Below are positions 6,496 through 13,655 of a stretch of 64,000 bases of DNA, one piece after another. Origin of the DNA: Vitreimonas sp. (lineage in GTDB: Bacteria; Pseudomonadota; Alphaproteobacteria; Caulobacterales; Aquidulcibacteraceae); NCBI RefSeq assembly GCF_036392335.1, contig NZ_DASVYD010000045.1:5254-69253 (forward strand), written 5' to 3'. Positions within the stretch are counted from its first letter, which is position 1. The number at the start of each line of letters is the position of its first letter. The position numbers were made by a program, and so were the translations under genes. Below the pieces are notes generated by a model. It was not told where the DNA came from. It saw nothing but the letters and a program-made list of their open reading frames with translations, and did no database searches.

Positions 6496-7869
6496 TCAAC
6501 ACTCCACCACATTCACGGCCAAACCGCCTTGGCTGGTTTCCTTGTATTTCGACGACATGTCGAGGCCGGTTTGGCGCATGGTCTCGATGACTTGATCGAG
6601 TGACACTTTGGTGGCGCCGGTGGTGTGGAGTGCGAGACGCGCGGCGTTGACCGCTTTGACCGCGCCGATGGCGTTGCGCTCGATGCAGGGGATTTGCACA
6701 AGCCCGCCGACGGGATCGCAGGTGAGCCCAAGATTGTGCTCCATGCCGATCTCGGCGGCGTTGGCGACTTGTTGCGGCGTCGCGCTCCATATGGCGGCGA
6801 GCCCGGCGGCGGCCATCGAACAGGCGACGCCGACTTCGCCTTGACACCCCATCTCGGCCCCGGAGATCGAGGCGCGCTGTTTGTAGAGCAGGCCAACCCC
6901 GCCAGCGGTAAGAAGGAACGTGCGCGTCTTCGCCTGCACGTCGCCTTCGCTGCAATAATGGCGCAGCACCGCGGGGATGATGCCGGCGGCGCCATTGGTG
7001 GGCGCGGTGACGACTTGGCCGCCGGCGGCGTTCTCTTCGTTCACGGCCATCGCATAGACGTTGAGCCAATCGAAGAGCCGTTCAGGCTCGTTGGCTGCGC
7101 CAGCGCTGCTCATCTTGCGCCAGAGCTCTGGCGCGCGGCGCTGGACTTTGAGGCCGCCGGGGAGTTCGCCGGTGCGCTGCAGGCCGCGCTCGATGCAAGC
7201 GCGCATGACCTCGCCAATGCGATCGAGTTTGGCTTCGGTCTCGCTGCGTGGACGCATCGCGTCTTCGTTGGCGAGGATGATGTCGGCGACACTCGCGTTA
7301 GTGCGGTCGCAGGCCTCGAGCAATTCAGCGGCGGAGCCGAAGGGATGCGGCACGCTGATGCGTGAGGGGATGAGGTCGCCGTCGACGGGTGTTTCGAGCT
7401 GGCGGCGCGTGGCGATGAAGCCGCCGCCGGTCGAGTAATAGTCTTCGCTCGCCAGCACGGCGCCGTTGGCGTCATAGGCGGTGAGCTTCATGCCATTGGG
7501 GTGCAGCTTGGGCATGACATCGTAGGCGAAGACGATGTCTTGCTCTGGATCGAACGCGATGACGCCGCCGTGGGGCAAATCGATCTGCTTCTGTGCATGC
7601 ACATGCGCGACGATGCGATCGGCTTCGGCGGGGTCGAGAGTCTCAGGCTCAAGACCGGCAAGGCCCAGGATGACAGCCTTTGGCGTGGCGTGACCGGCGC
7701 CCGTGAGTGCCAGCGAGCCTTGCAGTTCGACGACGATGCGCTGTGTGGCGGCGCGCGTGCGCGCGCGCTCGAGACTATCGACGAAACGCTTGGCGATACG
7801 GATGGGGCCGACCGTGTGGGAACTCGAGGGCCCAATGCCGACGCGAAAAAGGTCTAGAACTGAAAGCAT
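6496..7869 (-). CDS. sdaA: L-serine ammonia-lyase (iron-sulfur, single-chain form)
   Basis: 457 aa. [23 protein letters not shown]-terminus and [19 protein letters not shown] motif. Confidence 0.9.
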
Positions 7870-8054
7870 GGGCGGCAGCTATTTCCCGAACGCGCGGTCG
7901 GCGCTTGCGCTGCTTACACGTGCGCGTTGGCAACCGCTACGCTGCTTGACGTTGGGAAAACGACGCGGCGGCGCCGCTTGCAGCGCCAGGGCATTGACGA
8001 CTTGCCTAAAAGATGTCCCATTGTGCGCTGCAGCATAAATCGCGAGAGCGCTCC

Positions 8055-9326
8055 ATGGCCCAGCCGAACCTGAAAGCCGTCAAGGACCTGTACGATATCG
8101 GGGAGATTCCGCCCCAATTCCATGTGCCCAAAACCATGTGGGCGTGGGCTATCCGCAAGGAGCGGCATGGCCGCCCCGCGACGGCGATGCAGCTGGAAGA
8201 AGTGCCAGTGCCCACGATCGGCGAGGACGAAGTGCTCGTGCTCGTGATGGCGGCCGGCGTGAATTATAATGGCGTATGGGCCGCGCTCGGCCAGCCACTC
8301 AGCCCGCTCGATGGCCACAAGCAACCTTATCACATTGCCGGCTCCGACGCCTCCGGCATCGTGTGGGCTGTTGGCTCAAAGGTGAAGCGTTGGAAGCCCG
8401 GCGACGAAGTCGTCATCCACTGCAATCAAGACGATGGCGACGACGAAGAATGCAATGGCGGCGATCCGATGTTCTCGCCCAGCCAACGCATTTGGGGTTA
8501 CGAGACGACGGACGGCTCTTTCGCGCAATTCTGCAAGGTGCAAGCGCGCCAGCTGATGCCGCGGCCGAAGCATCTCACCTGGGAAGAGGCCGCGTGTTAC
8601 ACGCTCACCCTGGCGACTGCGTATCGCATGCTGTTCGGCTGGCGTCCGAACGTGCTCCGGCCCGGCCAGAACGTGCTGGTGTGGGGCGCCTCGGGCGGCC
8701 TCGGCGTGTTCGCGACGCAACTCTGCGCGGTCAGCGGCGCCCACGCGATCGGCGTCGTCTCCGATGAGAGCAAGAAAGATTACGTGCTCTCGATGGGCGC
8801 GAAGGCGGTGCTCAACCGGAAAGACTTCGATTGCTGGGGCCAGCTGCCAAAGGTGAATGGCGAGGGCTTTCCCGAATATATGAAAGAGGTGGCGAAGTTC
8901 GGCAAAGCCGTGCGCGCCATCACCGGCGGCAAGGACCCCGACATCGTGTTCGAGCACCCGGGCGAGCAGACCTTCCCGGTTTCCGTGCGCATCGTGAAGC
9001 GCGGCGGCATGGTTGTGATCTGCGCCGGCACCACGGGCTACAATCTGACCATGGACGCGCGTTATCTCTGGATGCACCAGAAGCGCGTGCAAGGTTCGCA
9101 CTTCGCCCACCTCTATCACGCCAGCCAGGCCAACCAGCTCGTGATCGACCGCCGGATCGATCCGGCGATGTCGGAAGTGTTCGCCTGGGACAAGATCCCG
9201 GACGCGCACGAGAAGATGCTCGATAACAAGCACGCGCCAGGCAACATGGCCGTGCTGGTGAACGCGCAGCGTTCGGGTATGCGCACCTGGGAAGAAGTGC
9301 TGGAAGCCAGCGACGCGCGGGGCTGA
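8055..9326 (+). CDS. ccr: crotonyl-CoA carboxylase/reductase
   Basis: MDR-family enzyme with a Ccr-typical N-terminus (KDLYDIGEIPPQFHVPKTMWAWAIR) and IWGYETTDGSFAQF. Start taken at MAQPNLKAV. Confidence 0.85.
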   Translation: MAQPNLKAVKDLYDIGEIPPQFHVPKTMWAWAIRKERHGRPATAMQLEEVPVPTIGEDEVLVLVMAAGVNYNGVWAALGQPLSPLDGHKQPYHIAGSDASGIVWAVGSKVKRWKPGDEVVIHCNQDDGDDEECNGGDPMFSPSQRIWGYETTDGSFAQFCKVQARQLMPRPKHLTWEEAACYTLTLATAYRMLFGWRPNVLRPGQNVLVWGASGGLGVFATQLCAVSGAHAIGVVSDESKKDYVLSMGAKAVLNRKDFDCWGQLPKVNGEGFPEYMKEVAKFGKAVRAITGGKDPDIVFEHPGEQTFPVSVRIVKRGGMVVICAGTTGYNLTMDARYLWMHQKRVQGSHFAHLYHASQANQLVIDRRIDPAMSEVFAWDKIPDAHEKMLDNKHAPGNMAVLVNAQRSGMRTWEEVLEASDARG

Positions 9327-9385
9327 TTGCGCCAGCTCAATGCGGCATGCGGCAAGGGAGCGCTCCTTAACCAAAGGAGGCTCCC

Positions 9386-9841
9386 ATGCTTAACCCAGCC
9401 CAGCGCGACTTTGTCGTGTCGATCCTGGATGAAGCGGCCGATCTGACGGTCGCCACGCTGCGCGCCGACGGCTGGCCGCAGGCGACCACGGTCAGCTTCG
9501 CCAATGACGGGCTCGCGGTGTATTTCGGAACGAACGCGGAGAGCCAGAAGGCGCAGAACATCGCCCGGGACAATCGCGTTTCGGTCACGGTCAATTGCCC
9601 CTACGATGGCGATTGGTCTGCGATCCGCGGCGTTTCCATCGGCGGGCGGGCGCAGCGCGTGACGGCGAGCGATGAGGCGGCGCGGGTCGGCGCGCTCATG
9701 GCGAAGAAATTTCCGCAAATATCGCAATTCGTGGATGTCGGCGCCGGCTTTGAGATGGCGCTCTTCCGGATCGACGCGGAGATCATTTCCGTGCTCGATT
9801 ATTCAAAGGGCTTCGGCCACGTCGACCTCCTGACGGTTTAA
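9386..9841 (+). CDS. pyridoxamine 5'-phosphate oxidase family protein
   Basis: About 150-aa split-barrel-like sequence. Strong SD AAAGGAGG upstream of the ATG. Confidence 0.8.
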   Translation: MLNPAQRDFVVSILDEAADLTVATLRADGWPQATTVSFANDGLAVYFGTNAESQKAQNIARDNRVSVTVNCPYDGDWSAIRGVSIGGRAQRVTASDEAARVGALMAKKFPQISQFVDVGAGFEMALFRIDAEIISVLDYSKGFGHVDLLTV

Positions 9842-9981
9842 CCAGACCTGGCGCGGCGCCGGTTTGGTTATCGGCCCTAAACGATACAAGCAGGTCTCGG
9901 GACATACGCGCGGCAGGGGTTTTGCGTGCCGGATTGATCGAATCCCGCGGCGCCGCACATGCACAGCGGCCTCCGAAGCTT

Positions 9982-10950
9982 ATGAAAGCTGGGAGAATAC
10001 AAGTGGGTTTCGCGAAACAAGTTCTGGCGACCGCCGCTGTGATCAGCGTCGTCGCCTTCGCGCCGGCGGCGTCCGCCGGCGGCACCAATCATGGCGGCGG
10101 CAATCAGTGCCACTACAATTGCAGCGGATCGCCGTCGGCCAACGCCAACGCGAACGCCAATGCCTGGGCGCAGGGCGGCAACGCCACCAACAACAACAGC
10201 ATTCGTAACGACAACTCGAACAGCAACGAGAATCGTAACGAAAATTGGAACCAGAACCAGAACCAAAACTGGAACGAGAACCGGAACGAAAACTGGAACC
10301 AGAACACCAATCAAAACTGGAACCAGAACACGAACAACAACACGAACAACAACGCCAACACCAACAACAACTCGGCTAACGCCTCGAACTCGAACACGAA
10401 CAACGCGTCGAACTCGAACACGGTGACGGCGAACGGCGGTTCGGCGACAGCGTCGAACAGCAACACCAACAGCGCTGACAATTCGAACTCGAACAATTCG
10501 AGCCAGACGGTCAACGTCAACAACAACACGCCGCGCGATCCGGTGAACACGGCGTACGCCGCCGGCCTCACCGCGGGCGAAGACACCTGCATGGGCTCAA
10601 GCTCGGTCGGTGCGCAAGGCATCAGCTTTGGTCTGTCGATCGGCACGACCTGGCGTGATCGCAACTGCCAACGCCTGAAGAACTCGCGTCAGCTGGTTGC
10701 GCTTGGCTATCACAACGCCGCCACCGCGCTGATGTGCGTGGACCCCGATGTCCGCGAAGCGATGGAAGAAGCCGGCACGCCTTGCCCGAGCCGCGCCTCG
10801 GCTCAACCGGCGGCCTTCGTGGCGCCGGCGCCGGAACCGACCCCGGTTGCGGAAGCGCCTGTGGTTGCCCCGGTCGTTGTCGCTGAAGAGCCAGCGCCCG
10901 CGCCGGCCCCGCGCCGCCACCGCCGCTTCTACGGCGAAAAGTCCAACTAA
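9982..10950 (+). CDS. secreted Asn-rich repeat protein (signal peptide, N-x array, 4-Cys domain, Pro/Ala tail); family not recognised
   Basis: Signal peptide ...VVAFAPAASA|GG. Start is either the ATG at 9982 or the GTG at 10003, which has GGGAGA 6 nt upstream. A rho-independent terminator lies directly downstream. Confidence 0.75.
   Translation: MKAGRIQVGFAKQVLATAAVISVVAFAPAASAGGTNHGGGNQCHYNCSGSPSANANANANAWAQGGNATNNNSIRNDNSNSNENRNENWNQNQNQNWNENRNENWNQNTNQNWNQNTNNNTNNNANTNNNSANASNSNTNNASNSNTVTANGGSATASNSNTNSADNSNSNNSSQTVNVNNNTPRDPVNTAYAAGLTAGEDTCMGSSSVGAQGISFGLSIGTTWRDRNCQRLKNSRQLVALGYHNAATALMCVDPDVREAMEEAGTPCPSRASAQPAAFVAPAPEPTPVAEAPVVAPVVVAEEPAPAPAPRRHRRFYGEKSN
10207..10371 (+). repeat. coding N-x dipeptide array with an 8-residue N-W-N-x-N-x-N-x periodicity
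   Basis: Read codon by codon: Asn occupies 28 consecutive alternate positions. Trp occurs 4 times at an exact 8-residue spacing. Confidence 0.9.
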
Positions 10951-10978
10951 GCCGATCCCATACCAGATCGTCTCAACG

Positions 10979-11011
10979 AAGCGGCCCCGGCAACGGGGCC
11001 GCTTTTCGTTT
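10979..11011 (+). terminator. rho-independent terminator
   Basis: AAGCGGCCCCG-GCAA-CGGGGCCGCTT followed by TTCGTTT. Confidence 0.8.
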
Positions 11012-11037
11012 GCGCGCGCCGCGGGCATAAGCGCGGC

Positions 11038-11658
11038 ATGCTGCGTATTCTGGGCCGTGTCACCTCGATCAATGTCCGCAAAGTTCTGTGGACGGCCGAC
11101 GAGCTTGGGCTGACCTACGCGCACGAGGATTGGGGTTTGCCGCTGCGCGATCCGGACGTTCCAGAATTTCGCACGCTTAATCCGAACGCGCAGGTCCCCG
11201 TCCTGATCGACGGCGATTTCGTGCTTTGGGAAAGCCACGCGATCATGCGCTATCTCGCGGAGCGTGAAGCCTCACACCTTTTGCCCGCGGATGTGCGCCA
11301 GCGTGCGATCGTCGAGCAATGGCTTGGTTGGCAGGCAAGCGACCTCAACATGTCTTGGCGCTACGCGGTGGCGGCGCGGGTGCGCCACCTGGCCGGCTAT
11401 GACGATGAAGCGCGCATCGCGGAATCGTTGAAGGAATGGACCTCGAAGATGCGCGTGCTCGATGCGCGACTGGGGGAGACAGGCGCGTACGTCGCGGGCG
11501 CCGAATTCTCGCTCGCGGACCTCGCCTTGGGGCTCTCTGCACATCGCTGGTTCGGCGGCGCGTTCGAGCGGCCGGACTTGACGCATGTCAGCGCGTATTA
11601 CGAGCGCGTGCGGGCGCGGCCCGCGGCGCTGGCCCATTTTTCCGCGGCGACACCCTGA
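11038..11658 (+). CDS. glutathione S-transferase family protein
   Basis: N-terminal thioredoxin-like GST fold (NPNAQVPVLIDGDFVLWESHAIMRYL). Confidence 0.85.
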   Translation: MLRILGRVTSINVRKVLWTADELGLTYAHEDWGLPLRDPDVPEFRTLNPNAQVPVLIDGDFVLWESHAIMRYLAEREASHLLPADVRQRAIVEQWLGWQASDLNMSWRYAVAARVRHLAGYDDEARIAESLKEWTSKMRVLDARLGETGAYVAGAEFSLADLALGLSAHRWFGGAFERPDLTHVSAYYERVRARPAALAHFSAATP

Positions 11659-11730
11659 GCGGCGCCGTCCGGCGTTGACGGGGGCGCCGGGCAGGGCGCT
11701 AATGCCCGCAGATTGCGGGGGAGCGCTTTC

Positions 11731-13209
11731 ATGGTTCGATTGATTGTGGCGGGCTTGGCCGTCGTGTTGTTGGCGGTCGCCGGGTTTGTCGGCTACCGCA
11801 CCATGTCGTTCACCGCGCCCCCGCCGCCGGCCGAGACGGCGATCCCCGCGACAGGCGCGTATGAAATCGACGTGAGCGCGGCCGCGCAGCATGTCGCTCA
11901 AGCTATTCAATTTCCGACCGTCTCGTTGGTGAGTGTCGAGGAAGACCGCACGCCTTTCCTCAATCTGCATGCGTGGCTGCAACAGACGTATCCTGCGCTC
12001 CATGCCGTGGCGCGGCGCGAACTGATCAACGAGCTCTCGCTGCTCTACACGTGGGAGGGCTCCGATCCGGCGCAGCCGCCCATCGTGCTCTTGGCGCACC
12101 AAGACGTGGTGCCCGTGCCCGACGATACGCGCGCGGCGTGGCGCGTCGATCCGTTTGGCGGCGTCATCCAAGAGGACGCCGTGTGGGGGCGCGGCGCCAT
12201 CGACGATAAGGGCTCGCTGGTCACGCTGATGGAGGCGGCCGAGTTTCTGGCGCGGCAAGGGCGTCAGCCGCGACGCACGATCATCTTTGCATTCGGTCAC
12301 GACGAGGAGATCGGCGGCGACGACGGCGCGATTGCGATGGCCGAAGCGCTGAAGGCGCGCGGCGTGCGCGCCTGGTTCGTGCTTGATGAGGGCATGGCCG
12401 CGATCGACAATCATCCGCTCACAGGCGGTCCCGCATCGATGATCGGCATCGCCGAGCGCGGCTTCGGCACGTTGCGTGTGCACGCCACGGGACAGCCGGG
12501 GCATTCCTCGATGCCGCCGCCGGAGACGGCGGTGTCTTCGGTCGCGGAAGCGGTGGTGCGTATTCACGACATGCCGATCGAGCAGCGGCTCGAAGGCGGC
12601 CCGGCCTTGGAGATGATGCGGGCGCTCGCGCCGGAGCTTTCACTCACCAATCGCATGGCGGTGTCGAACGAATGGCTGTTCGGGCCGATGCTGCGTGCGC
12701 GCATGTCGGAGAATCCCACGGCGCGGGCGTTGCTCGGGACAACGCAGGCGCCGACCATGATCAACGGCGGCGTACGGCCGAACGTGCTGCCGGCGGAAGC
12801 GACCGCCATGATCAATTTCCGCTTTCACCCGCGCGATCCCGCCGCCGATATCTTGCAGCGCGCCCGCGCCGAAGTGGCTGATATCGAAGGCGTCGATGTC
12901 GATTGGGCGGAGCCGCCGCGCGAGGCGACGGCGATGTCGAGCACGACGAGCAGCTCCTATGCGCTGCTGGCGGCGCTGTCGCGCGATATCCTGCCGGATG
13001 CGCCGGTGGCGCCGGGCCTAGTACTCGCCGGTACGGATTCACGGCACTATTCGGAAGTGGCGGAGAATGTTTATCGCTTCCAGCCGATGCTGTTCTCGAC
13101 GGAAGACCTTGAAGGTATTCACGGCACGAATGAACGCCTGACGCTGGCCAATCTTGAGCGTACGGTGCGGTTCTATATTGGCTTGATGGAAGCAGGAGCG
13201 ATGCAATGA
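11731..13209 (+). CDS. M20/M25/M40 family metallopeptidase with an N-terminal membrane anchor
   Basis: Motifs HQDVVP, GRGAIDDKG and GHDEE. GGGGGAG lies upstream of the ATG at 11731. Confidence 0.85.
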   Translation: MVRLIVAGLAVVLLAVAGFVGYRTMSFTAPPPPAETAIPATGAYEIDVSAAAQHVAQAIQFPTVSLVSVEEDRTPFLNLHAWLQQTYPALHAVARRELINELSLLYTWEGSDPAQPPIVLLAHQDVVPVPDDTRAAWRVDPFGGVIQEDAVWGRGAIDDKGSLVTLMEAAEFLARQGRQPRRTIIFAFGHDEEIGGDDGAIAMAEALKARGVRAWFVLDEGMAAIDNHPLTGGPASMIGIAERGFGTLRVHATGQPGHSSMPPPETAVSSVAEAVVRIHDMPIEQRLEGGPALEMMRALAPELSLTNRMAVSNEWLFGPMLRARMSENPTARALLGTTQAPTMINGGVRPNVLPAEATAMINFRFHPRDPAADILQRARAEVADIEGVDVDWAEPPREATAMSSTTSSSYALLAALSRDILPDAPVAPGLVLAGTDSRHYSEVAENVYRFQPMLFSTEDLEGIHGTNERLTLANLERTVRFYIGLMEAGAMQ

Positions 13210-13655
13210 TCCGCGTTTTGCTGATGGCGGCGGCTTTGGCTGCGTGCACGCCGGCGCAGGAAGCCAAAGAGGAGGCGGCGCCCGTGACCAATCAAGCCGT
13301 GCCCGCGCCGACGCCGGAGGATGTCACGGTGCGCATCACGGCTGCGCAGGCGGGGCAGACGATCGAGGTGGGCGTGAACCAGCGCTTCGCTGTGGAGCTC
13401 GTGGGCGTGCCGACGGCTGGCTATGTGTGGACGCCCGCGCAGCTGCCAGCGTTCGTGACGCGAGCGGGCGAGGCGTCGGGCAATACGACGCAAGCGCAGA
13501 GCCAACCGGGTTTCGTCGGCGGCAATCATTGGGAAGTGCTGATGTTCGTCGCCACCGCGTCGGGAACGGGCGAGTTGGTGCTGGAACAGCGGCGGCCCTG
13601 GGAAAGCAATGAGCCCGCGGCCGACGTGTTCCGCGTTACGATCGTCGCGCGCTGA
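13206..13655 (+). CDS. chagasin-family (I42) peptidase inhibitor lipoprotein
   Basis: Lipobox LAAC; VGVPTAGYVWTP and GELVLEQRRPWE resemble I42. ATGA overlap with the upstream M20 gene. Confidence 0.75.
   Translation: MIRVLLMAAALAACTPAQEAKEEAAPVTNQAVPAPTPEDVTVRITAAQAGQTIEVGVNQRFAVELVGVPTAGYVWTPAQLPAFVTRAGEASGNTTQAQSQPGFVGGNHWEVLMFVATASGTGELVLEQRRPWESNEPAADVFRVTIVAR

Follow-up and report, generated by a model that had tools for sequence, protein, structure and literature searches.

The 64,000-nucleotide (nt) window of Vitreimonas sp. DNA analysed here (GCF_036392335.1, contig NZ_DASVYD010000045.1, positions 5,254-69,253 of the forward strand) carries at 10003-10950 a gene for a protein in which asparagine (Asn) occupies every second position over a long array. 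Our main result is that a large, phage-shared protein family without a curated description stands behind this array, which is itself a striking local elaboration. The features of the gene and its product are as follows.

9991-9996, forward strand: Shine-Dalgarno-like GGGAGA, 6 nt 5' of GTG 10003; a purine-rich Shine-Dalgarno sequence lies at the equivalent site in five aligned orthologues.
10003-10950, forward strand: coding sequence of 315 amino acids (aa) and a stop codon, counted from the GTG as the likeliest start; an in-frame ATG at 9982 would add 7 codons.
10003-10077, forward strand: predicted Sec-type signal peptide MGFAKQVLATAAVISVVAFAPAASA, with predicted cleavage ASA/GG, judged by eye from an n-region Lys, a 17-residue hydrophobic core and AxA.
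10078-10122, forward strand: mature N-terminus GGTNHGGGNQCHYNC, a Gly/His-rich stretch with a C-x3-C (CxxNC) loop.
10138-10179, forward strand: ANANANANAWAQGG element, whose (A/S)WAQGG motif recurs in the related alphaproteobacterial proteins L002, L012, L016, L026, L035, P0067, P0073 and P0220.
10207-10371, forward strand: strict N-x array (aa 76-130), with 28 Asn at consecutive alternate positions.
10225-10335, forward strand: tandem DNA repeat, resolved by Tandem Repeats Finder into 4.4 copies of a 24-bp unit (81% match) and 2.2 copies of a 48-bp unit (85% match).
10372-10536, forward strand: second, less regular half of the low-complexity region, SANASNSNTNNASNSNTVTANGGSATASNSNTNSADNSNSNNSSQTVNVNNNTPR, in which ...SADNSNSNN.SQ.VNVNTYN.R is well conserved among alphaproteobacterial relatives.
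10537-10788, forward strand: conserved, family-defining four-Cys domain DPVNTAYAAGLTAGEDTCMGSSSVGAQGISFGLSIGTTWRDRNCQRLKNSRQLVALGYHNAATALMCVDPDVREAMEEAGTPCP of ~85 aa.
10591-10653, forward strand: Gly-rich segment MGSSSVGAQGISFGLSIGTTW inside the four-Cys domain, with GxxxGxxxG spacing, hydrophobic/small alternation and Trp at its end.
10789-10947, forward strand: Pro/Ala-rich tail with a basic/aromatic end cluster RRHRRFYGEKSN, read from the sequence, with weak TonB-spacer-like composition matches.
10975-11011 (approximate), forward strand: intrinsic terminator, a G+C-rich hairpin with a 10-bp stem (core stem 10980-11003) and GCAA loop, followed by the U-tract UUUUCGUUU.

The open reading frame (ORF) at 9982-10950 translates into 322 aa, and residue numbers run from its ATG (subtracting 7 gives the numbering from GTG 10003). 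We took the GTG as the start over the ATG because the GTG and its Shine-Dalgarno sequence are conserved in five orthologues: the GTG is present in all five aligned (WIN, L009, L012, L067 and L068) and the ATG in two of them, and homologues begin MGF or MGL. The alignment thus makes a product of 315 aa most likely. A preliminary description of this DNA had given the gene its own Shine-Dalgarno-like GGGAGA; the motif is present and serves GTG 10003, but it sits within the ORF assumed there and not ahead of ATG 9982. The terminator called textbook in that description was borne out by RNA folding of the hairpin and U-tract (-32.9 kcal/mol, z -3.46, equalled in 1 of 200 shuffles), and a simple terminator scan did not list the hairpin at 10975-11011. 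A sigma-70 scan gave no match on the forward strand. Upstream regions of the orthologues (window 9842-10002; L009, L012, L067 and L068) share the blocks TTCGCG, TTTGCGT/TTGTGT, CGGCGC and TGCA at 40-110 nt before the start, short elements that may mark a promoter or operator. An exact-sequence look-up in a protein collection returned no entry for any of the three variants that the alternative starts would give.

Translation reproduced the 28 consecutive alternate Asn of the preliminary description, whose quoted string was exact, with the x positions filled by Q6 E4 W4 T4 N3 S2 R2 D1 A1. The four Trp reported at exact 8-residue spacing lie at aa 89, 97, 105 and 113, giving four NWNxNxNx units. 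When the 157-aa mature low-complexity stretch (39.5% Asn) was shuffled 20,000 times, the longest alternate-Asn run averaged 5 and never exceeded 15, compared to 28 observed; the alternate-Asn pattern is therefore far beyond chance. The exactness of the Trp phasing arises because 24/48-bp DNA units were duplicated in tandem, the 48-bp unit encoding a 16-residue super-unit of NENRNENW then NQN(Q/T)NQNW. The array is also the compositional outlier it had been said to be, with a GC content of 0.447 over 10225-10374 compared to about 0.63-0.70 in the flanks. Across the low-complexity region, VLIFMW residues make up 6% and charged residues 7%, mean hydropathy is 0.30 compared to a disorder boundary of 0.42, and the best 80-residue window holds 48 Gln plus Asn (Q+N); composition and hydropathy point to an unfolded monomer. 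Searched alone against 5.8 billion proteins, the array returned 39 candidates, none at E<=0.01, and at that sensitivity it is without a recognisable module counterpart elsewhere. Asn codons in 10003-10950 are AAC 57 : AAT 9, compared to roughly equal use in the neighbouring genes at 6496-7869, 8013-9326 and 11713-13209 (10:4, 8:6 and 4:8); the AAC bias could come from repeat ancestry or translational selection.

Identity to the closest relatives is 74-76%, over aa 1-273 for L009 (a Hyphomonadaceae metagenome-assembled genome (MAG), CP096134), over the full length for P0220 and over about half for P0067; L012 (a Caulobacterales MAG, also returned as P0209) belongs to this group as well. L067, the contig bearing P0220, has the same gene order as the window (window 6496-13655; L067 1466-8635): serine dehydratase on the reverse strand, crotonyl-CoA-reductase-like (ccr-like) dehydrogenase, PNPOx, the array gene, GST, M20 peptidase and chagasin-type inhibitor I42. 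This order is kept in part in L002 and L068. NxNxNxNW units occur in all five orthologues, with Trp spacings of 8/8/8 in the window protein and P0067, 8/8 in P0220, 10/8/8 in L009 and 8/6 in L012. Nei-Gojobori ratios of nonsynonymous to synonymous substitution (dN/dS) for three sequences were 0.12-0.29 for the four-Cys domain; the low-complexity region gave 0.13-0.24, to be read knowing that alignment within the repeats is ambiguous and synonymous sites in the array are saturated. Of 47 window Asn codons that align with an Asn codon of L009, 11 are AAC in one sequence and AAT in the other. These synonymous differences and the low dN/dS together indicate that the Asn positions are kept by selection at the protein level, which by these measures amounts to purifying selection on the array among close orthologues. 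With its own Shine-Dalgarno sequence, terminator, syntenic orthologues and purifying selection, this is a real, stand-alone coding gene, in agreement with the earlier view that it is not junk.

The neighbours of the array gene show no obvious functional link to it, and no phage or mobile-element genes were found near it in the window. Clustering the neighbours in about 55 family loci revealed no recurrent partner gene. Tandem paralogues at family loci were apparent only, being artefacts of ORF calling and low-complexity BLAST matches.

The preliminary description did not recognise the family. No Pfam, NCBIfam or PADLOC family covers the whole protein (a spurious Pfam match had E 0.95), the C-terminal half alone has none in Pfam or NCBIfam, and a profile search of Protein Data Bank (PDB) sequences gave a spurious poly-Gln match only (E 2.3). 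What had been missed is a large catalogued, phage-carried family, PHROG 20531, matched at E 1.5e-30 with aa 144-283 on positions 144-288 of its 314-position profile. The C-terminal 149 aa used as query found 64 homologues (best E 1.8e-63), each annotated as either 'hypothetical' or 'OmpA-like'. Searched with a profile, a set of 1.84 billion cluster representatives (50% identity) gave 3,808 matches at E<=1e-3, the weakest of which may include low-complexity noise, 2,437 at E<=1e-10 and 514 at E<=1e-30. Alphaproteobacterial carriers comprise 52 loci in Hyphomonadaceae, Caulobacterales, Micropepsaceae and Terricaulis-type (also Vitreimonas) genomes and MAGs, sometimes with two copies per genome; the family is also found on Variovorax, Burkholderia and Novosphingobium replicons (chromids). 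Phage carriers number at least 20 records, from phages of Pelagibacter (6), Roseobacter, Ralstonia (including jumbo phages), Achromobacter (N4-like) and Agrobacterium, in addition to metagenomic phage contigs. A full-text literature search found no study of any PHROG 20531-type member.

Gene callers also break on these genes, leaving truncated stubs and antisense ORFs, and the family is under-counted as a result. At L002/L014 2003-2885 (GCA_003242075.1), the public MAG annotation reduces the homologue to a stub of 138 aa and places two ORFs on the opposite strand across the low-complexity part; the true ORF there encodes 324 aa with a leader. In the window, mechanical antisense ORFs at 9877-10314 and 10311-10664 on the reverse strand overlie the array.

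Members share a common layout of signal peptide, optional Cys loop, variable polar low-complexity region, four-Cys domain and variable tail. In the window protein, the leader takes up 25 aa and the polar region ~160 aa (39.5% Asn), and both parts are likewise found in the 137-178 complete members. The Sec-type leader described earlier stands on its n-region Lys, 17-residue hydrophobic core and ASA/GG site, and its segment is conserved across homologues, an equivalent leader being found in most complete members. By these features, the protein is probably exported through Sec to the cell envelope. The polar region is 43-242 aa long, with a pooled composition of N 18%, G 17%, S 12%, A 10.5%, T 8% and Q 7%, and every member examined has one. 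Measured against these relatives, the Asn array is a local, extreme version of the family's hypervariable polar region.

The three-part design and the four-Cys segment noted earlier were confirmed, and the four Cys are conserved. The domain consensus is TAYAAPL..EDTCMGSSSxGxQGxxFGxSxGTTWxDxxC...LGxxxAAxALxC...AMxxAGTPCP. In an alignment of 134 sequences, three of the Cys columns do not vary, and the fourth reaches >=90% conservation, as do the MGSSS, G, Q, GTTW and D columns; in a 65-sequence alignment, two of the four Cys columns are invariant. The window protein has all four Cys and the full C-M-G-S-S-S ... G-T-T-W-x-D-x-x-C ... C ... G-T-P-C motif. Its six Cys lie at aa 43, 47, 203, 229, 252 and 268. 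The first two form the Cys loop, which in the family lies 4-20 residues past the leader as CxxNC or CGVGQ[QT]TNGC, phage members included. Complete members have no pre-domain Cys (84), exactly two (46) or, in only 6 cases, one; a number of 0 or 2 makes pairing of the two pre-domain Cys likely. The four-Cys domain would in turn be stabilised by disulfides in the periplasm. Gly/His-rich mature N-termini recur beside the Cys loop, as in GGTNHGGGNQCHYNC of the window and in P0019, P0026, P0063, P0009 and P0006 (TGGTHCHHNSC, GGHH..., GDHGG...), which hints at a putative metal site.

Tails in relatives end as ...MAPVxDxP...K.LPPK or DPI[IV]RxRLGLPPLK, with a hydrophobic end (P0061, P0062), or in OmpA_C. 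The last is present in 5 of 134 representatives and also in P0004, P0011, L010, L027 and L033; a Pfam/NCBIfam-type scan of the 134 relatives gave OmpA (5 members) and Collagen (1 member) only. Both the OmpA_C fusions of relatives and the conserved Cys favour a location in the periplasm, close to the wall. The C-terminal part would then be an interchangeable anchor, with the four-Cys domain and tail as an anchoring or recognition module. A C-terminal Lys is found in 41 of 123 complete members (P0005-P0187), for example at L061 3506-4420, which ends DPIVRKRLGLPPLN; such recurrent motifs suggest a docking or cross-linking signal. Covalent attachment to the wall by a terminal Lys, as in Lpp, was rejected for the window protein, whose C-terminus is ...GEKSN, its terminal residue thus being Asn and not Lys. 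An N-glycosylation scaffold, prompted by GGNAT repeats in relatives, was likewise rejected, with 512 N-x-S/T sequons observed compared to 543 expected and z -0.86 for the window protein.

The same OmpA_C domains bear on a possible glycan-binding role, in which the spaced Trp amid Asn and Gln would form a ladder for peptidoglycan glycan strands, lipopolysaccharide, capsule or holdfast, so that the protein would be an adhesin for wall or matrix. Contacts to sugars are typically made by Trp, Asn and Gln, OmpA_C binds peptidoglycan, the Trp phasing is conserved in the closest orthologues, and the host lineage is Caulobacterales-like. However, Trp makes up only 0.2% of polar-region residues family-wide; on this count, the Trp phasing is a speciality of the window protein's sub-clade, so that a glycan ladder would be a sub-clade speciality at best, and no carbohydrate-binding family was matched. 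We consider this role very unlikely.

The phage carriers raise another explanation, that the protein is a phage-type envelope modifier acting from the periplasm in superinfection blocking or lysis tuning, with the chromosomal copy domesticated for phage protection or wall stabilisation. Exported phage proteins commonly act in superinfection exclusion or lysis tuning, and family members are present in at least 20 phage genomes, cultured or assembled and of very different types, and in metagenomic phage contigs, as early or accessory genes in several phages and with an endolysin within 2 kb in two cases. On the other hand, their position in phage genomes is inconsistent, and the window gene stands in a conserved metabolic neighbourhood without phage genes, syntenic across species, which fits a vertically inherited host gene. 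Moreover, neither the window protein nor four phage and relative proteins had a PADLOC match at E<=0.1. Such a function thus seems rather unlikely for the window protein.

The two endolysin neighbours, each within ~2 kb, are lysozyme gp51 for gp53 of CRP-810 (L065 3324-5132) and peptidase M15 gp49 for gp45 of HTVC023P (L064 3306-6361). Membership of a phage lysis cassette was rejected as inconsistent, given the early or accessory regions occupied in other phages. In the pelagiphages HTVC023P (gp45-gp46, L064 3306-5381) and HTVC202P (gp24-gp25, L066 3267-5267), a homologous 430-460-aa protein is encoded directly 3' of the family gene. It has an acidic low-complexity middle and no Pfam match, the two copies match each other by BLASTP at E 7e-30, and it may be a phage-specific partner.

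The two-residue rhythm of the array extends to the family. The best self-identity lag was even (2, 4, 6 or 8) in 113 of 137 complete members, and lag-2 identity exceeded z 3 against shuffles of each protein's own composition in 126 of 178 (median z 4.2), compared to enrichment of lag 1, i.e. homopolymers, in only 4. Period-2 patterning is thus a family-wide trait. Since plain slippage would favour homopolymer runs, the two-residue alternation looks selected. The alternating residue may be N, Q, S, A or G, and the longest alternate run is the 28 of the window protein, followed by 22, 22 and 18 in relatives. In some relatives, Asn or Asp alternates with hydrophobic residues (NINANLNANFN, DIDIDN; also IGVGVGIG), and others have strand-GG-turn-like units such as AVNFNANVAKGGDA; taken as patterns, both are beta-strand signatures. 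Still other repeat types occupy the same place, including GGNAT, AYGGDAK and collagen-like GxN, and L020 (GGNAT) and L029 (NGxNG) have the same neighbours with different repeat types. That quite different repeats replace the region in relatives argues against one specific fold. Collagen-like (Gly-X-Y)n regions are found in about 9 of 136 members, with up to ~100 triplets, ending GRDGRDGR and matching Pfam Collagen at E 1e-25; (Gly-X-Asn)n tracts occur in P0007, P0026, L041 and L046-L055 from Hyphomonadaceae and other alphaproteobacterial MAGs. GRDGRDGR lies directly before the four-Cys domain in a sub-clade with L041, L046, L047, L049, L052, L053 and L055, in which such tracts replace the Asn-rich region; some of these collagen-like members (P0092, P0241, P0242) carry OmpA_C too.

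The tandem DNA repeat beneath the array, the wide variation of region length and repeat type in the family and the lack of an AlphaFold2 fold would all suit a neutral repeat expansion, a slippage-made linker filler without a function of its own. We nevertheless hold this to be the least probable of the explanations considered: the region's dN/dS of 0.13-0.24 is as low as that of the folded domain, Asn is kept through AAC/AAT changes, the bias is specifically for period 2 instead of homopolymer runs, and no family member examined was without such a region.

We modelled the protein with AlphaFold2, whose runs covered the monomer; these results cannot address oligomeric, amyloid or trimeric states. 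With the 65-sequence alignment, the mean predicted local distance difference test score (pLDDT) was 55.7. Three helices were predicted at aa 227-263 with pLDDT 86-91. The Gly-rich segment MGSSSVGAQGISFGLSIGTTW is nearly invariant in the family, yet pLDDT is <50 at aa 206-221, and it may be a partner-, membrane- or oligomer-dependent element. In the low-complexity region, pLDDT was 40-49 without secondary structure, and a run on aa 50-190 alone had a mean pLDDT of 47.5 with a low-confidence helix only. Foldseek against the PDB gave nothing below E 1.8, the matches being small helical hairpins, and against BFVD only uncharacterised phage homologues.

The preliminary description had suggested beta strands with an all-Asn face, as in an Asn-ladder beta-solenoid. 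No strands were predicted in either run, relatives swap in other repeats, and a monomeric beta-solenoid is not supported by the predictions. Nor is the region confidently predicted to be a disordered linker, low pLDDT being no such prediction. The broader idea of a beta or self-associating region fared better: although no ordered solenoid is predicted, period 2 is family-wide, the array with its Trp phasing is kept in five orthologues (dN/dS 0.13-0.24 for three of them), and Asn alternates with hydrophobic residues in some relatives.

This broader idea leads to an ordered fibre, in which cross-beta Asn ladders with stacked Trp, or a trimeric beta-helix or collagen-like shaft, would be clamped by Cys at both ends and form an appendage or functional amyloid anchored by the C-terminal domain. 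A strict period 2 with an 8/16-residue super-period would suit such a structure, as would the NxNxNxNW unit common to five orthologues (low dN/dS was measured for three), the family-wide period 2 with avoidance of homopolymer runs, the alternation of Asn with Ile, Leu, Phe or Ala and strand-GG-turn-like AVNFNANVAKGGDA in relatives, the Cys pairs flanking the polar region and the 48 Q+N per 80 aa; genuine (Gly-X-Y)n tracts in about 9 of 136 members imply trimers. However, neither AlphaFold2 run gave beta structure, hydrophobic content is extremely low, repeat periods of 2, 3, 5 and 7 interchange between relatives, and four 8-residue units are short for a stable solenoid. The protein also gave no match to curlin repeats, and genes for a nucleator or a secretion partner were not found. 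An ordered fibre is, in our estimate, possible but distinctly doubtful. A version in which the variable region consists of interchangeable fibrous shafts, Asn-ladder or polar-zipper here and collagen-like Gly-X-Asn triple helix in relatives, Cys-clamped at both ends and anchored in the envelope by the four-Cys domain and tail, appears slightly more doubtful still.

We tentatively favour an exported envelope protein anchored by its four-Cys domain and tail, the array being an extended, hydrated and laterally pairing chain that gives a spacer, brush or gel; this is our leading reading, held at slightly less than even odds. The array would have been built in this lineage by tandem duplication of 24/48-bp units encoding NxNxNxNW, with the Asn phase then maintained by selection. 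After export, the C-terminal half would fix the protein in the periplasm or at the wall, through the tail here and through an OmpA-type peptidoglycan-binding domain in relatives. The 160-residue Asn/Ser/Thr/Gln-rich region would project as an extended, highly hydrated chain, and its period-2 polar pattern would allow neighbouring chains to associate laterally by hydrogen bonding between side chains (a 'polar zipper'). Where such chains are locally dense, they could form an envelope layer that acts as a spacer, brush or gel, not a globular fold. Phages carrying the same module might thereby remodel the envelope of the infected cell.

Several points weigh against this anchored-chain reading. Low pLDDT is an absence of prediction and no proof of disorder, and the dN/dS values within the repeats carry the alignment and saturation problems given above. 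A flexible chain accounts for the purifying selection, the Trp phasing and the Asn/hydrophobic alternation of relatives no better than ordered beta structure would. The case for the tail as an anchor comes only from the domains that take its place in relatives, the window protein having neither OmpA_C nor the C-terminal Lys motif. Finally, the lack of a recurrent partner gene means that no pathway is pointed to.

The family spans soil and freshwater Alphaproteobacteria, Burkholderiales and phages of Pelagibacter and other marine and plant-associated bacteria, Pelagibacter being one of the most abundant bacteria in the sea. The family is marked by a probably exported polar region whose repeat type changes freely and whose two-residue rhythm is almost always kept, and the window protein is the cleanest example. 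If the region self-assembles, the product would be an envelope fibre or gel of a new type; if the fibrous shafts are real, they would be a new class of periplasmic or surface fibre in free-living proteobacteria and phages, including pelagiphages. Even as a hydrated spacer, the region would illustrate a way in which the periplasm or cell surface is tuned by bacteria and phages.

We compared the protein with known systems. Phage members of PHROG 20531, such as JWAlpha JJJB_0025 (Achromobacter phage), RSP15 ORF122 (Ralstonia phage), phiRSL1 ORF070 and HTVC023P gp45 (Pelagibacter phage), have the same overall plan and true homology over the four-Cys domain, with 37-56% tblastn identity. They differ in having G/N/Q- or S/T-rich regions without a long N-x run or Trp phasing, and tails that are DPIVRxRLGLPPLK or Lys/Glu-rich. 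The match names the family and explains no function. Curli CsgA/CsgB are likewise Sec-exported, with Gln/Asn-rich period-2 repeats and a proposed Asn/Gln ladder stacking, and the strand-GG-turn units of relatives recall Q-x-G-x-G-N-x-A. However, the window protein, unlike curlins, continues into a folded domain with Cys and then a Pro/Ala tail, and does not match the curlin repeat PF07012 even at E<=1. No csgB/csgEFG-type genes lie near it, the neighbours being ccr-like, PNPOx, GST, M20 peptidase and inhibitor I42. AlphaFold2 does model curlin solenoids, unlike its result for the window array. Q/N prion-like domains, such as the yeast Sup35 N domain and Clostridium botulinum Rho, are alike in composition. 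Michelitsch and Weissman (2000) reportedly set the prion-like criterion at 30 Q+N per 80 residues, and the window protein has 48. It differs from these domains in being exported, strictly alternating and without a switch or regulatory domain. The collagen-like proteins BclA of Bacillus and Scl of Streptococcus (PF01391) also place a variable repetitive shaft beside a small conserved globular domain, and relatives of the window protein carry (Gly-X-Asn)n; the window protein itself has no Gly-X-Y tract, and its end domain is unrelated, helical and with four Cys. Compared to OmpA/Pal (PF00691), the window protein lacks OmpA_C and has a low-complexity region and four-Cys domain in place of a barrel or lipid anchor, but a minority of the family ends in a bona fide OmpA_C, which would place the family in the periplasm by the wall.

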